A stretch of DNA of 63,975 nucleotides, filler included, from Candidatus Woesearchaeota archaeon (GTDB taxonomy: Archaea > Nanobdellota > Nanobdellia > Woesearchaeales > BM511), in assembly GCA_023266675.1 (NCBI GenBank). It is 5 parts of 5 records of this genome, joined end to end, with 100 filler letters (N's around TTAATTAATTAA, not from the genome) between each part and the next. Parts side by side here need not be neighbours in the genome. Positions count along the whole stretch, not along the records: positions 39,871 to 48,676 come from JAHFPP010000056.1; positions 48,777 to 57,539 come from JAHFPP010000057.1; 3 more parts are not named here. The stretch is one strand, 5' to 3'. Made by a program: the position numbers. Within the stretch, counting starts at the first letter, position 1; every line of letters starts with the position of its first letter. Shown here in pieces: positions 48,001 to 54,000 of the stretch.

Positions 48001-51000
48001 AAAAAATAAACGGGTTGCCCATCGCAGCGCGTCCAATCATTACTGCGTCACAGCTACCGCTTTCAAGTTTTTCTTTAACTTTCTCAGGAGAATTTACGTC
48101 ACCGCTTCCAATAATTGGTATGTTCGCTTTTTCCTTCACCTGTTTTATCGCGTTCCAGTCTGCTTTTCCGCTGTATCCCTGCTCTTTCGTCCTTCCATGA
48201 ATGCTTAAAGCGTCAGCGCCGGCGTCTTCAACTATTTTGGCGACTTCTAAATAATTTATTGACTTCTCATCCCATCCAATCCGTATCTTTGCCGTAACAG
48301 GGACATTAACAGCGTCTTTTATTGTTCTTATAATTTTTCCGATATTTTCAGGGCATTTTAGGTTGTAAACCCCTCCTTTTTTTGCAATGACATCCTTATC
48401 AGGGCATCCAAAATTGATGTCAATTAAATCAACATAAGGTTCAATTATCTTTGCAGCTTCTGCCATTTTTTCGGGGGTTGCGCCGACAATCTGACCGCCA
48501 AGCGGACGCTCGTCAGCTATGAAATCATTGAACCTTGAAAAAGCCTGAATCACGCCATCCTCATCCATCAAAGGCGAATAAACAAGTGCTGCACCATGAA
48601 GTTTACACTGCAATCTAAACGCTGCGTGTGTAACACCAGCCATTGGGGCAAGTACTGCATTTCCTTCAAGCTTTAANNNNNNNNNNNNNNNNNNNNNNNN
48701 NNNNNNNNNNNNNNNNNNNNTTAATTAATTAANNNNNNNNNNNNNNNNNNNNNNNNNNNNNNNNNNNNNNNNNNNNGGGCGGCAAATGGTCAAAGGAATT
48801 AGCTGAAGAAAATCTTTTACGAACACACACAACAGTGCTATCAGCAGAATACTTAAAAAAAATAAATGAAGGCGAGTTTAAAACCCCTGCAAAATTCTTC
48901 TCAGTAAACAAGGTTTTTAGAAATGAATCGCTTGACTGGAAACATTTGTTTGAATTCAATCAGGTCGAAGGGATAGTAATTGACCCAAATGCAAATGTAA
49001 AACATCTTAAAGGATACTTACGGGAGTTTTTTGGAAAGATGGGGTACACAGACATAAGAATGAGGCCAGCGCACTTCCCATATACTGAGCCAAGCTTTGA
49101 AGTTGACGTTTATAATCCAAAAAGAAAAACATGGGTAGAGCTTGGAGGCGCAGGGATATTTAGACCTGAAGTCACAAAAACATTAATTGGAGTTGAAGTA
49201 CCAGTTCTCGCATGGGGGCTTGGTATGGAAAGGATAATCACAGAATACTTTGAAATAAGCGACTTACGTGAGCTTTACAAGAACGACTTAAAGCAGTTAA
49301 GAAGAATGAAAGCGTGGATGAAATGATGAATAAAAAAGATTCATATAAAATGGAATACGGAAAAGAAAGAATGATGATTGGAGTATTACTCTTAGTCTCT
49401 TTAATCTTCATATACCTTCCTTCATCTGTTATACCTATGAAACATATAGCCGCCTTAATGATAGGCGCTACCGCAATATATCTAATGCTGAGTTAAAACA
49501 AAATGCCACAAATAACAATAAATAGAAAAGTGTTTGAAACACTCGTTGGACGAAAGCTGCCTATCGAAAAGCTAAAAGACAGAATAAGCTATTTAGGAAC
49601 TGATCTTGATGAAATAACTGATGACGAGATAATGGTTGAAATTTTCCCAAACAGACCGGACATGCTGTCAGAACAGGGATTTGCACGGGCATTTTCAAGC
49701 TTCATCGGTGAAAAAACAGGTCTAAGAAATTATGAAGTAAAAAAAGGCGGCAAAGATTATAAAGTAATAATAGATGATTCATTAAAAGATGTAAGACCAT
49801 ACACTGCGTGCGCAATTGTTAAAAACCTTAAGTTTGACGACGAAAGAATAAGGGAAGTAATTCAGATACAGGAGAAGCTTCACATCTCCTACGGACGTCA
49901 GCGAAAAAGAGTTGCAATAGGAATTTATCCTCTTGAAAAAATAACGCTTCCAATAACATTCAAAGCAATGAAGCCTGACGAAATAAACTTTGTGCCGCTT
50001 ATGGCAGACGACAGCAAAGCTCAAAATGAAGAAAGCGGACAGACAATAAAATTGTTCTGGGAAAACCCTTATCTCATAAAATGCAAAGCAAAAGTTGTTC
50101 AAATAAATGGCAAAAAAGTAAAACTTGATCAAACAATATTCTATGCTTTCTCAGGAGGGCAAGAATCAGACTCAGGAACTATCGGTGATATAAATGTTCT
50201 AAGCGCTGTAAAGCAGGGTGACAAGGAAAGCATAATTAATATTGAGTACGAGCTGGAACATGAGCCAAATTTTAAAGTTGGAGACGTTGTTGACGTAAAA
50301 ATTAATAAAGAAAAGCGAGGAAAGCTCATGAGGCTGCACTCAGCAGCACACATAATATATTATATTGTTTATGAAAAACTTGGAAAGCTTAAAATAATTG
50401 GCTCAAACATAACAAGCGAGAAAGCAAGAATGGATTTTGAATACGACAAGCCATTAAATGAAGTTTTGCAGGAGATAGAATCAGACGTTAATAAATTAAT
50501 TGAAGAAAATCACAAAATAGAAATGTATGGGGATGAAAAAAACCAAAGCCTAAGATGGTGGAACTGCAAAGAATACAAGATGCCATGTGGTGGAACACAC
50601 GTAAGTTCAATGCAGGAAATAGGGAAAATACAGTTAAAAAGAAAAAATATCGGAGCAGGAAAAGAAAGAATTGAGATATACCTATCTGAAGAAGAAAATC
50701 TGCATTTTTATTCTCAAGAAAAATATGAAGAGCAAAAATCAAAAATAATTGCTCCTAAAATAATGACTGCAAAACAGATTCTTGAAAATCACCCGACTGG
50801 AAAAGAATACGCGCCACTTTTGCACGGGCTTAAAAAATACCCGATATTTATTGACACAAAAGGAAAAATACTCTCAATGCCTCCAATAATTAACAGCCAT
50901 GACATAGGCAAGGTTACGGAAAAAACAACAGACGTGTTCATTGAATGCTCAGGTTTTGACTTTGAAGTGCTGTCAAAATGCCTAAATTTCATAGTAACTG

Positions 51001-54000
51001 CGCTGTCTGACATGGGAGCAGAAATATATGAGATGGAACTTGATTATAAGGACAATAAAAAACATACTCCTAACTTAAATCCGCTCGAAATGAATGTTGA
51101 CCATGATTACATAAACAAGCTTTTAGGGCTTGAATTAAAAGATGGCGAATTTAAGGAATATTTTGAAAAAATGGGATATGCATATCATAAAAACAAGGTT
51201 TTTGTTCCAGCATGGCGTGCAGACATACTTCACCAGGCAGACCTCGCTGAAGATGTGGCAATAGCTTATGGATACGAGAATTTTGAAGAAACAATTCCAA
51301 ACGTCGCAACAATAGGGCACGCAAATGATTTTGAAGTCTTCAAGGAAAGAATACTTGAAGTGCTAGTCGGCCTTGGATTTATAGAAACAAATACGTTTTG
51401 CATAATAAACAAAGATGAGCAGATAAAATTCATGAATTATAACGGCGAAGTTGTTGAACTCTTAAATTCAGTATCAGAAGAATACAACTCACTTAGGTCA
51501 TGGATGACGCCAGCAATGCTTAGCGTATTAAAAAATAACAAGCACCATGAGTATCCGCAGAATATCTTTGAGGCAGGAAAAGTATTCTTAAAAGACAGTG
51601 AAAAAGAGACAGGTGTAAAAGAGGATGTCAGGCTTTGCGTTGCAATATCAGCAGTTGACGCAGACTACACAAGAATAAGGCAAGTTCTTGATTTAATATT
51701 CGAATCATTAAACACCGACTATGAAATAACTGAAACAGAGCACAATTCATTTGTTCCAGGGCGTGTTGCAAGAATAATAAAAGGAGACAAAAAAATAGCA
51801 TATATTGGAGAGATACATCCAAAAGTACTGGAAAATTTTTCGCTTGAAACTCCAACGGCAACGCTCGAATTAAACCTAACCGAGCTTTATTCCATATTAA
51901 AATGAAAATACACTACAATCTGGCAAACGAGAGAAAAAAAATGAATAATATCATTTCGGAAATCAAAAAAACTCCAAATAAAAATATTTTTCTGGAAGTG
52001 TTTGACAAGGCTGAATTTATAGAGAATATTTCAAACTCGCTTAAGAAAGGGGAGAAAATAAGGATAAAAATTGATGAAAAGACAAAAGATTATCCAAACA
52101 TACTTAACACTGACTTGCCGCGTTTTATAATACAGAAGGATTTAGAAAAGGAGCAAATGTCAGTTATTGAACATTTAAAAAATATGGAAGGATTTATTTT
52201 TAATATTAATAAAAAAGGAAATGATTACTTCTTAGAAATACACAGGACACTTGATATAAAACTTAATTTAAAGCTAAAGATTGACAGTGATAAAACCATA
52301 GACCTAAATTTATTGACAGATAAAAAAGGAAAGGACAACATATTTTTTGGGATAAAAAGTTATTACTATATCAGAAAACTAAATGACTTTTCTTTAACTT
52401 AACTTCTTAAAACATAATTTTTTTAAATAATAAAAATTTATTATCATAATGTACTATTCAAGTAGATTATATAATACTGACAATAATTTAACTTATGAAT
52501 CTAATATTCAGCAGAATCTTTATAGAAAAAGAGAACGTTGTAGTAGAAGATGCAATGATGCTTGCGATGGATTTAGATGTTGATAATAGCTTTATCCAAA
52601 TCTAGTTGCTAAGTTTACCATTCTACCATAAGATATTGCAAATGTAATAAAAAATAATAACCCAATTGCTAATAAGACTCCAATATTCATTATAAAAAAT
52701 AAGAAACATCTTTTAAGTTTAACTTTTTTATCTTCCTGACTATCTATTAAATATACTAAGAATGAAACTAATGCTAAAAAAACAATAAATATAACACCTA
52801 ATATTGCAAAATATTCATTTCCACTATATCCTTTACTAATTATATTATTCATAGTAAATATGGGGTCAATCCATTTTCTTGAGAGTGGATATATAATAAG
52901 AATATATACTAAATCTACTATTATAGATATCAATAATAATTTTAAAATATTAAGATTAATCTTAAATTTCATTAAATAACTAAAGAAAATGTTATTTAAA
53001 TATCTATTCATTTGTTAAATATAAATAAAAAATAAAGAAGAGTTTATTCTTCCTTTTTTGGAGCTGCTTTTTTCTTTGCAGGAGCCTTTTTAGCTTTGCC
53101 TTCAGAATTATCAGACTTTTTCTCTGCTTTTTCTTTTTTAGCTTCAGTTTTTCTGGCTTCTTTCTTTTCTTTTTTCTCAGCTGATTTTTGTTTGTCAGCG
53201 CCTTTTCTTACGTGAAGCGGTCGAGCTCCAGCTTTTTTTGGTTTTGTTTCCTTGATATCAAGTCCAAATTTCTTAAAAGCTGTCCTGACGTCAGCGCTTG
53301 ATGCGCCTTTCTTCAACGATAATGTTTCCATTAATGGCTCCAAGTGCAAAACATTGCATTTTCTTCTTCTTGTTTCGCCGTCAATTATAACAAATCTGTC
53401 ATCAATAACTTCGACTATAACACATTTTTTTGCTGCATCTCTTCCTGCAAGTTTAATACAAACTCTTCCTACTTCAAACATTTTATTTCCTCCGTGTATC
53501 CTTCCTAAGAATTATTAGTGGCGTCGCCGCTCACTTTTAGGATGGATGTATTTTTTTAAATTATATTAATAAAAATGAAAAATTTATTTTCTTGTTTCGT
53601 CTTTTATCTTCTGCCTTAAACATTTTGAGCATAAAACTCCGCCATATGGTCTTTCTGGTCTCTTCATAGTTTTTGGCATGTTCTGCATTTTTCTTGGCCT
53701 TTCTCTGGCTACGCCTTTTAAAACGTCTCCGCATGTGCCGCAGTGTGCTTTTTTAGGTTTTCTTAAAACGTGATGTAAAACTACTCTGCCGCCAGGGGTC
53801 TTTCTTGATACTCTTCTAAATGTTCTTGATTTGTGTATTCCTGATACCATTGTAGACGTTAGAAATTAGGCTTGATTTAAAAAGATAACGGTTTTTTGAT
53901 ATCTAATAAACGTTCATCAATTTTCTTATTAATATTGATAGAATCAGTGAGAATATTATATATGTTCCAAGCCATCCTGGGTGCCATCCTAAAAAGCTGA

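Follow-up and report, generated by a model that had tools for sequence, protein, structure and literature searches.

A complete AlaX-M editing module nested in the B3/4 editing domain of an archaeal phenylalanyl-tRNA synthetase beta subunit

Introduction

The editing domains of aminoacyl-tRNA synthetases are thought to have descended from free-standing deacylases, or the reverse, in events that are ancient; CP1, the INS domain of ProRS and the AlaX-type domains of AlaRS and ThrRS are examples. ProRS INS, which belongs to the YbaK/ProX family, is an inserted editing domain whose homologue is a free-standing deacylase. The AlaX-type domains of AlaRS and ThrRS, SepRS-ThrRS-ED and the AlaX-like domain of apicomplexan TrpRS likewise place a homologue of a free-standing deacylase within a synthetase (as described in the relevant passages of the AARS Online paper, PMC11580382, and of PMC8762117 and PMC3680381). 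AlaX-type domains are given only for AlaRS and ThrRS in the AARS Online paper (PMC11580382), and the literature that we searched held no fusion of AlaX to PheRS. AlaX-M itself, according to the relevant part of a review, deacylates Ser- and Gly-tRNAAla and selects the G3:U70 pair (PMC11295145).

Here we describe the anatomy, conservation, fold and origin of a PheRS beta subunit, P0001, that carries an AlaX-M module inside its own editing domain. As far as our searches show, this is the first case of an intact editing enzyme nested in the editing domain of a non-cognate synthetase. It differs from known inserted or appended editing domains in that the host is a non-cognate synthetase with a different editing domain of its own, the guest lies inside that domain, and the donor lineage can be identified at ~70% identity; unlike the apicomplexan TrpRS domain, it also has intact catalytic motifs.

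Results

The window, a stretch of 63,975 nucleotides, includes an 8.8 kb contig from the metagenome-assembled genome of a small groundwater archaeon. An N spacer ends at position 48776 and the contig begins at 48777, inside the 3' part of pheS, the partner gene directly upstream of pheT; the pheS fragment still matches PF01409 over profile positions 77-245 of 246 (E 1.5e-56). The preliminary description had reported a continuous 800-residue PheRS beta frame, and this proved correct: Pfam and NCBIfam models identify the product as an archaeal PheRS beta, with PF18262, PF03483, PF03484 and PF17759 marking B1, a split B3/4, B5 and the catalytic-like module (CLM), together with an AlaRS-type editing module (Table 1). 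With the archaeal family model TIGR00471 (pheT_arch) the product reaches 503.7 bits (cut-off 282.65) in two stretches, and with PF03483 it reaches 25.5 bits, under the cut-off of 29.3, because B3/4 is split. No other PheT match was found in the genome, which is 95.9% complete, and P0001 must therefore serve as its PheRS beta.

Table 1. Features of the pheS-pheT locus, in window coordinates
Feature	Position	Strand	Evidence
pheS 3' part (PheRS alpha catalytic core)	48778..49326	+	5' side cut by contig start
pheT, PheRS beta with nested AlaX-M, 800 aa (P0001)	49503..51905	+	one continuous ORF; TIGR00471
B1 domain, aa 1-84	49503..49754	+	PF18262 aa 1-69; 2cxi alignment
B3/4 editing domain, N-terminal part, aa 85-166	49755..50000	+	2cxi alignment up to residue 168
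N-linker, aa 170-181 (12 aa), start of inserted piece	50010..50045	+	absent in 113/113 plain homologues; pLDDT ~60
Complete AlaX-M module, aa 182-394 (N-terminal beta-barrel and editing domain)	50046..50684	+	free AlaX-M profile, 2e1b, Foldseek
HxxxH zinc motif, HSAAH, aa 279-283	50337..50351	+	H279, H283 at positions with conservation of 95% or more in 120 free AlaX-M
CxxxH zinc motif, CGGTH, aa 362-366	50586..50600	+	C362, H366 in conserved columns
C-linker, aa 395-418 (24 aa), end of inserted piece	50685..50756	+	absent in plain homologues
B3/4 editing domain, C-terminal part, aa 420-512	50760..51038	+	ungapped vs 2cxi residues 173-275
B5 domain, aa 530-591	51090..51275	+	PF03484 E 8.7e-24
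Catalytic-like module B6/7, aa 596-792	51288..51878	+	PF17759 E 1.1e-44

The host part is well conserved. In a PDB sequence search, chain residues 1-168 of 2cxi, the P. horikoshii PheRS-beta N-fragment, correspond to aa 1-166 of P0001, and residues 173-348 to aa 420-591. Conserved PheT sites are retained at 134 of 135 positions, including 56/56 in B3/4, the same counts as in P0003, which has no insert. The putative equivalents of P. horikoshii L202, S211, N217, D234 and T236 are F449, S458, N464, E481 and S483, two of them identical and three conservative, and all are at least 95% conserved among insert-less relatives. L202, S211, D234 and T236 are reported to be residues of the B3/4 editing site (Sasaki et al. 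2006). N217 is cited as such in the part of PMC3275996 that treats this site. In the order B1, B3/4, B5, B6/7, in its family sites and in the adjoining pheS, P0001 resembles other archaeal and eukaryal PheRS beta subunits (P. horikoshii, 2CXI; human FARSB, 3L4G). It departs from them in carrying an additional piece in a single loop of B3/4; at the same point, ~17 residues of human FARSB are unaligned.

The piece comprises 249 residues (aa 170-418; 747 nt), so that a loop of 14 residues in 113/113 plain homologues measures 263 in P0001. The insertion within a B3/4 loop had been recognized before and can now be placed to the residue, between residues 3 and 4 of the 14. No more than ~5 residues separate this point from the two-helix hairpin (423-440) with which the C-terminal B3/4 part opens (helices 423-429 and 431-440 in an AlphaFold2 (AF2) model). 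Two linkers of ~20 residues had also been described; the linkers exist, but their lengths are 12 and 24 residues. The longer one contains a predicted helix (405-415, pLDDT 65-72), and the segment aa 395-419 has a GC content of 0.25 and a GC3 of 0.08. An intein, or another self-removing insert, was considered and rejected. Inteins have Cys, Ser or Thr as first residue, a terminal His-Asn and a nucleophile after it; the junctions here (PLMAD followed by DSK, and IIAP followed by KIM) lack the required residues.

Between the linkers lies a whole AlaX-M with both zinc motifs, as had been proposed. Residues 4-215 of the 216 in P. horikoshii AlaX-M (2e1b) align with aa 180-394 (PDB sequence search, E 3.1e-39), and a profile of free AlaX-M matches over positions 2-216 (envelope 180-396, E 1.6e-115); within the insert, Pfam and NCBIfam mark tRNA-synt_2c at 193-270, tRNA_SAD at 358-391 and the AlaXM model at 182-350. 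That model, NF040865 (a_tRNA_ed_AlaXM), gives the insert 147 bits against a cut-off of 300, yet the free-standing relative P0234, at 140.5, also falls below, implying that the cut-off leaves out a whole subfamily. Of the 68 columns in which 120 free AlaX-M show at least 95% conservation, P0001 retains 66 and the related P0002 65, compared with 63-68 (mean 67.0) in free proteins. All four zinc ligands are kept, the GGQ motif is present and the C-Ala domain is absent. In all these respects, and in fold, the module resembles free AlaX-M (2E1B; P. furiosus 9IUW; Woesearchaeal P0234); unlike them, it is embedded in another enzyme and has lost its own start (Q180 stands where the Met would be) and stop. 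The nested AlaX-M is apparently still active.

An AF2 model, built on a composite alignment of 132 rows and used for the fold of each part rather than for inter-domain placement (pTM 0.64), shows both parts folded. Mean pLDDT is 91.9, with 82-97 in the insert and 60-72 in the linkers. With Foldseek, the host part matches 2cxi_A (TMt 0.91), and the insert matches 9iuw and 2e1b (TMt 0.91, rmsd 1.9-2.0 A).

The internal topology is rare. As the preliminary description had it, one other protein shares it and further proteins carry AlaX-M at the C-terminus. The former is P0002 (798 aa), from a different record, which is 71% identical over 100% of the query and has the same junctions, its insert (71.8% identical) having changed to much the same extent as the flanks (74.3%); the latter are 14 proteins of 786-807 aa (13 clusters, P0008-P0012 and P0121-P0128, plus the representative P0354), all with zinc motifs kept. 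These hold the same two partners in one polypeptide, but end to end after the CLM rather than nested. In P0355, an EMAP/Trbp111-type tRNA-binding domain occupies the same C-terminal place in PheT. Internal AlaX-M in PheT was found in none of 400 other genomes of the same order, 22 of which have a close free copy; a search of this 95.9%-complete genome found no free AlaX-M. The nearest PheT, P0003, is 83% identical and lacks the insert. Other fusion partners of AlaX-M are class II LysRS (P0129, P0131 and G042; in P0129 and G042 AlaX-M directly follows a B3/4 domain), an AP-endonuclease-type TIM barrel and an NAD-synthase-like protein.

The insert is up to 71% identical to free AlaX-M and 50-56% identical to the C-terminal fused modules. 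In our tree it nests among free-standing Woesearchaeal AlaX-M, whereas a separate clade holds 13 of the 14 C-terminal modules; enforcing one clade of the inserts and these 13 (P0354 left out) costs 28.7 lnL (p-AU 0.033). The host PheTs of the two topologies also belong to different clades. The placement of the insert apart from the C-terminal modules indicates separate fusion events and supports the conclusion that the two topologies arose independently.

Discussion

We favor, at a probability of roughly 60%, the view that P0001 is a real bifunctional PheRS beta with a nested, in-frame alaX-M, in which both activities are intact and the deacylase is merely tethered. A 747-nt piece would have landed in frame in a surface loop of the B3/4 editing domain, directly before the hairpin that borders the editing pocket; it would hold a complete alaX-M gene, previously free-standing and of the local Woesearchaeal type, with ~36 nt of flanking sequence on its upstream side and 72 nt on its downstream side. 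The host would still be a PheRS beta, its own editing of Tyr-tRNAPhe included. The guest would still be a zinc-dependent AlaX-M that clears Ser-tRNAAla and Gly-tRNAAla in trans, now made 1:1 with PheRS and held by two flexible linkers. We infer the catalytic activities, the tRNAAla client and a tether without PheRS-specific chemistry. The tRNAAla(GGC) of this genome has G3:U70, the mark of the usual AlaX-M client; tRNAPhe was not found in the assembly. The genome also encodes a 384-aa AlaX-L-like protein, and the editing domain of its AlaRS is intact, so a third deacylase for Ser- and Gly-tRNAAla looks redundant. Fusion of AlaX-M to synthetases is recurrent (PheRS twice, LysRS-II), which could mean more than neutral tethering.

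The two topologies had earlier been taken to argue for functional coupling to PheRS. The anatomy and the two topologies stand, but coupling specific to PheRS now appears weaker, because AlaX-M is fused to LysRS-II and to two non-synthetases as well, the internal form is confined to two proteins and absent from the 400 other genomes of the order, and the closest PheT relative lacks it. At the 11 loci tested by tblastn, free alaX-M genes had no synteny with pheS or pheT, and none of the 47 neighboring ORFs scanned had a Pfam match to a PheRS family. The AlaRS editing domain and the G3:U70 tRNAAla retained by the genome weaken the case further.

With coupling in cis, the nested AlaX-M would stand at the opening of the B3/4 pocket and provide PheRS with another site for post-transfer proofreading: besides the Tyr-specific B3/4 site, the 3' end of PheRS-held tRNAPhe would sample a zinc hydrolase specific for Ser/Gly. 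We consider this unlikely, although the insertion point next to the hairpin, the two topologies on PheT and the position after B3/4 in P0129 and G042 are all in its favor. Indels in this region of the B3/B4 fold are said to shape the surface around the substrate site, in the part of PMC12268091 that treats them. Nor is tRNA choice fixed in the AlaX family, since a eukaryotic AlaX hydrolyzes Ser on nearly all tRNAs in vitro, as reported in the relevant section of PMC11260482. Against it, the 66/68 family sites kept show no sign of re-tuning, the linkers, long and modeled at low confidence, suggest a loose tether, P0003 manages without the insert, and AlaX-M is attached to LysRS-II and non-synthetases too. 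We also know of no report that PheRS mischarges Ser or Gly. A lineage-wide widening of proofreading, in which DPANN synthetases repeatedly captured AlaX-M to act in cis, seems to us similarly doubtful.

It is rather improbable that the module is mainly an additional tRNA-binding surface of PheRS, with hydrolysis secondary or lost. Precedents exist in the tRNA-binding domain of P0355, placed as the C-terminal AlaX modules are, and in the AlaX-like domain of Plasmodium TrpRS, which aids tRNA binding according to the relevant part of PMC3680381; moreover, archaeal PheRS beta is without the bacterial RNA-binding domains B2 and B8, as the pertinent section of PMC3275996 states. However, the same part of PMC3680381 describes loss of HxxxH and CxxxH from the Plasmodium domain, whereas P0001 keeps all four zinc ligands and 66/68 family sites although it and P0002 have diverged by ~28%, in keeping with ongoing selection for catalysis. 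Finally, it is very improbable that the ORF is a chimera of assembly or binning, or a functionless fusion in decay: the contig is short, comes from a metagenome and has its DNA in only one sequencing run, which may be the assembly's source, but the frame is open over both junctions, the linker sequences are unique, P0002 from another record shares the junctions at 72-74% identity, conserved sites are kept in both partners, and the GC content of the insert (0.34) matches that of the flanks (0.365).

P0001 is a rare, recent case of a free-standing editing gene turned internal synthetase domain. Because the donor is ~70% identical, the insertion point is known to the residue and an 83% identical relative lacks the insert, the steps can be rebuilt. 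If AlaX-M acts only in trans, as tethering would have it, the locus shows the tolerance of the B3/4 loop, which would be useful for engineering, and shows that genes of reduced genomes can fuse with a neutral effect on function. If it acts in cis, a synthetase would have gained a new proofreading specificity in one step. The captures by PheRS (twice) and by class II LysRS, with or without B3/4, would then suit cells living on scavenged amino-acid pools, and this locus would be a recent, traceable instance of an inserted editing domain arising from a free-standing deacylase gene.

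The fused beta subunit and its locus

P0001, the PheRS beta subunit with an AlaX-M module nested in its B3/4 editing domain, contains the Pfam domains B1, a split B3/4, B5 and a catalytic-like module. It scores 503.7 bits against the NCBIfam model pheT_arch, whose cut-off is 282.65. The window is made up of contigs with N spacers between them. The 166-aa ORF that follows probably shares a transcript with pheT.

Features of the pheT contig and of the contig that follows it, in window positions
Feature	Position	Strand	Remarks
3' part of pheS	from contig start, 48777	+	PF01409, E 1.5e-56
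56-codon ORF in the pheS-pheT gap	~49326-49496	+	hydrophobic peptide, two likely membrane segments
pheT with nested AlaX-M (P0001)	49503-51905	+	single uninterrupted 800-codon ORF
166-aa ORF	51902-52402	+	4-nt overlap (ATGA) with pheT stop; no Pfam match
2086-aa ORF	57592-63852	-	on the contig following the pheT contig

Integrity of both partners

Conserved sites are preserved on both sides of the fusion. Among 113 plain PheT proteins, 135 columns are at least 95% conserved; P0001 keeps 134 of them, as do P0002, a metagenome protein of the same internal topology, and P0003, the nearest PheT, which lacks the insert. Within B3/4 the count is 56 of 56 in both P0001 and P0002, as in P0003. At the same threshold, 120 free-standing AlaX-M proteins define 68 columns and themselves keep 63–68 of these (mean 67.0). 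The nested module of P0001 keeps 66, including H279, H283, C362 and H366, and that of P0002 keeps 65.

In P. horikoshii PheRS, L202, S211, D234 and T236 are reportedly editing residues (Sasaki et al. 2006), and their residue types match the sequence of 2cxi, the N-fragment of that beta subunit. N217 is cited for the same enzyme in PMC3275996. The equivalents in P0001, mapped with an offset of 247 from an ungapped alignment to 2cxi, are F449, S458, N464, E481 and S483, and all five are conserved in the family.

In the preliminary description the AF2 confidence of the insert was given as low. With a composite alignment (132 rows, 70 PheT and 62 free AlaX-M) the insert reaches pLDDT 82–97 in a model with a mean pLDDT of 91.9 and a pTM of 0.64, in which the linkers lie at 60–72 and the output carries no inter-domain geometry. 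In Foldseek searches the model matched 2cxi_A (TMt 0.91) and human FARSB, 3l4g_B (TMt 0.73), together with the AlaX-M structures 9iuw from P. furiosus and 2e1b from P. horikoshii (TMt 0.91, rmsd 1.9–2.0).

A whole alaX-M gene in a short loop

Residues 1–168 of the 2cxi chain align to aa 1–166 of P0001 and residues 173–348 to aa 420–591, so that about 250 residues stand in for a stretch of four. The loop between the conserved Pro-Leu (165–166) and His-Pro (430–431) has 14 residues in all 113 insert-less close homologues and 263 in P0001. Its start (MAD; ESD in P0003) and its end (KIMTAKQILEN; KVMSAKQILEN in P0003) are still recognisable, and these first 3 and last 11 residues delimit an inserted piece of aa 170–418, or 747 nt. 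Residues 4–215 of the 216 in 2e1b align to aa 180–394 (E 3.1e-39), and aa 182–394 match positions 2–216 of a profile of the 120 free-standing AlaX-M proteins (E 1.6e-115). Free AlaX-M proteins start with M-T-K/Q-K-L-F-W and end with ...ERIEIYL(S) before the stop; the module of P0001 starts with Q-T-I-K-L-F-W and ends with ...ERIEIYLSEEEN..., implying that a whole gene was inserted, its Met replaced and its stop read through.

The two linkers, of 12 and 24 aa, have no counterpart in either parent, and the C-linker segment, aa 395–419, has a GC3 of 0.08. We infer from these sequences that the linkers are former non-coding flanks of alaX. A comparison of the two junctions for direct repeats or microhomology yielded nothing beyond a longest common word of 7 nt, in A-rich sequence. 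An intein was ruled out by the junction residues.

In the AF2 model, strands run as far as residue 165, before the insert, and after it come a short strand (421–422), helices at 423–429 and 431–440, and a strand at 446–450. According to a structural comparison of B3/B4 domains (PMC12268091), these have three indel hot spots, and the archaeal/eukaryal type carries an alpha-hairpin insertion, IS2, which, in common with the other indels, gives shape to the surface surrounding the substrate site. In the model, the helices at 423–440 may correspond to the IS2 hairpin, in which case the N-terminal foot of the hairpin would be where AlaX-M entered. Human FARSB, too, has about 17 unaligned residues at the insertion point of P0001.

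The internal form is rare

A whole-protein word-index search scored 8000 candidates, of which 5328 had E values up to 0.001. The best 120 of these 5328 matches comprise two internal forms (P0001 and P0002), five C-terminal fusions and 113 plain proteins. When aa 172–418 served as query against proteins of 440–1400 aa, 169 matches were obtained. The top 15 are PheT fusions, two internal and 13 C-terminal, each topology being confirmed from motif positions; the C-terminal forms are 50–56% identical to the insert. In an exhaustive search of 50%-identity representatives, the best 150 include two fused proteins (P0354 and P0127), both C-terminal, and no internal form.

A junction-spanning match occurs in none of 400 other genomes of the order, a count that rests partly on 15 unpublished ones, and PheT frames in the three other genomes of the family measure 551–562 aa. 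No additional internal form emerged from scanning JGI metagenome contigs (22 loci) or GTDB species genomes (28 loci) for sequence patterns. Searched with aa 140–260, these 22 and 28 loci gave AlaX or AlaRS matches only, nearly all of which begin where the query enters AlaX, and no match covered the PheT residues ahead of the junction. Because two of the six scan patterns are specific to P0001, divergent internal forms could escape.

Origin of the insert and the two topologies

Free-standing AlaX-M proteins of 215–220 aa, from Woesearchaeota or Nanoarchaeota where named, reach 71% identity to the insert, and the insert of P0002 is on par with the closest of them, at 71.8%. In a 94-row AlaX tree both inserts cluster with P0262, a free protein (SH-aLRT 88), nested in a 65-row clade that is otherwise entirely free-standing (support 96). 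In the same tree, 13 of the 14 C-terminal PheT modules form a clade of their own (96), with P0354 apart on a long branch, and LysRS-fused modules form a third clade. Constraining the inserts and those 13 modules to stand together costs 28.7 lnL (p-AU 0.033, on a 46-row quick tree with P0354 left out). In the PheT tree the internal forms lie among plain Woesearchaeal PheT, and the C-terminal forms are spread over two or more other clades. These trees give moderate statistical support to the view that the internal and C-terminal topologies arose separately. Close AlaX-M proteins (E 1e-56 or better) are present in 22 of the 400 same-order genomes and absent from the same-family ones, so the donor gene is patchy within the order.

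A probable single gain with later loss or replacement

The PheT parts of P0001 and the insert-less P0003 are 82.6% identical, and those of P0002 are 74.3% identical to P0001 and 75.2% to P0003; the regions before and after the insertion site show the same pattern. In a careful tree P0001 pairs with P0003 (support 98/98) and P0002 falls outside the pair, a grouping under which the insert must have undergone two or more changes. A tree constrained to unite P0001 and P0002 is 21.5 lnL worse (p-AU 0.043, for a group named after the first tree was seen). The junction positions of P0001 and P0002 are identical and their C-linkers alike (SEEENLHF..EKYE and TEEKKLRF..KEYS), and we therefore favour, from these sequences, a single gain, after which the P0003 line would have lost the insert or had its allele replaced. 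Homologous recombination with an insert-less allele would be an easier route back to the 14-residue loop than exact excision of the insert.

Other partners of AlaX-M

The preliminary description had argued from the two topologies for a functional coupling of AlaX and PheRS. The topologies stand, but we see no sign that the link is peculiar to PheRS: AlaX-M is also fused to LysRS and to non-synthetases. P0129 (971 aa) is a class II LysRS followed by a B3/4 domain (aa 603–746) and, directly, AlaX-M (745–971); P0131 (712 aa) is a second class II LysRS with AlaX-M at its C-terminus; and one further genome (G042, L024; G042:C25, match 19617–20303) has a 960-aa class II LysRS–AlaX-M frame with one in-frame TGA. 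Post-transfer editing domains appended to a LysRS are not known to have been described. AlaX-M-like modules are also joined to an AP-endonuclease-2 TIM barrel in P0130, in which HxxxH is absent, with Glu (aa 340) in place of a conserved His, and to an NAD-synthase-like or TIGR00268-type protein in P0140. P0355, an archaeal-type PheT of 708 aa, bears an EMAP/Trbp111-type tRNA-binding domain (aa 553–652) at its C-terminus, the PheT site occupied by AlaX-M in other lineages.

Around free alaX-M genes, tblastn with PheT and a PheS fragment found no pheS or pheT in 11 GTDB loci (L005–L015). From 37 loci taken, 34 with an alaX ORF, a Pfam scan of 47 ORFs (43 alaX neighbours and four unusually long alaX ORFs, the neighbours of near-duplicate loci being left out) and of the ORFs of locus L077 found no PheRS neighbour. 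The neighbours are diverse, the sole synthetase being a class I LysRS in L077 (L077:1398-3702, Aenigmatarchaeota MAG contig JAWBPV010000001.1). This 531-aa protein ends in a TAA 1 nt before alaX-M, which has a GTG start and encodes 235 aa. AlaX-M thus adjoins a class I LysRS in this locus, and in the fusions it is joined to one of class II; the class I synteny is a single case, not conserved in the other loci. In L009 and L014, of family f11, the free alaX-M lies beside, and divergent from, a gene for a MiaB/MtaB-type radical-SAM tRNA methylthiotransferase (UPF0004, Radical_SAM, TRAM), and three more f11 loci have a neighbour ORF of similar size at the same place.

A putative bifunctional subunit

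The genome (1.22 Mb, 95.9% complete) has one pheT and no free AlaX-M. Its AlaRS has an editing domain with HTSTH and CGGTH kept, and a 384-aa AlaX-L-like protein (L003:1522-2676, G000:C46), with HTAEH, CSGTH and a C-Ala-like tail, matches the C-terminal half of AlaRS models; three AlaRS-type editing modules are thus present. The tRNAAla(GGC) carries G3:U70. No credible tRNAPhe was found in the assembly by aragorn at three settings or by Rfam RF00005, and aragorn found no credible tRNAHis or tRNACys in the genome. The RF00005 search gave only 28 tRNA matches genome-wide, several with introns.

Our main reading, to which we give a probability of roughly 0.6, is that P0001 is a bifunctional PheRS beta subunit. 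Its PheRS part would work as usual, since it is the sole copy and has its conserved sites. AlaX-M is described as clearing Ser- and Gly-tRNAAla with selectivity for G3:U70 (PMC11295145), and the nested module would still do so in trans, while now being tied to PheRS and expressed together with it. It is unlikely that the module proofreads PheRS-bound tRNA in cis. Even less probable is that the module serves mainly to bind tRNA, like the AlaX-like domain of apicomplexan TrpRS, which has lost its motifs (PMC3680381); those of the nested module are kept. An artefact is hardly credible. A single sequencing run contains the locus DNA and may be the assembly's own source. The Logan contigs of X1 and X3 match in pieces of ~20 nt, none spans the gene, and they are uninformative either way.

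We found no report of a PheRS–AlaX fusion in the main texts of the open full-text literature, in non-subscription journals, and passages of the AARS Online paper (PMC11580382) name AlaRS and ThrRS alone as bearers of AlaX-type domains. P0001 would be a synthetase with a captured trans-editing module.
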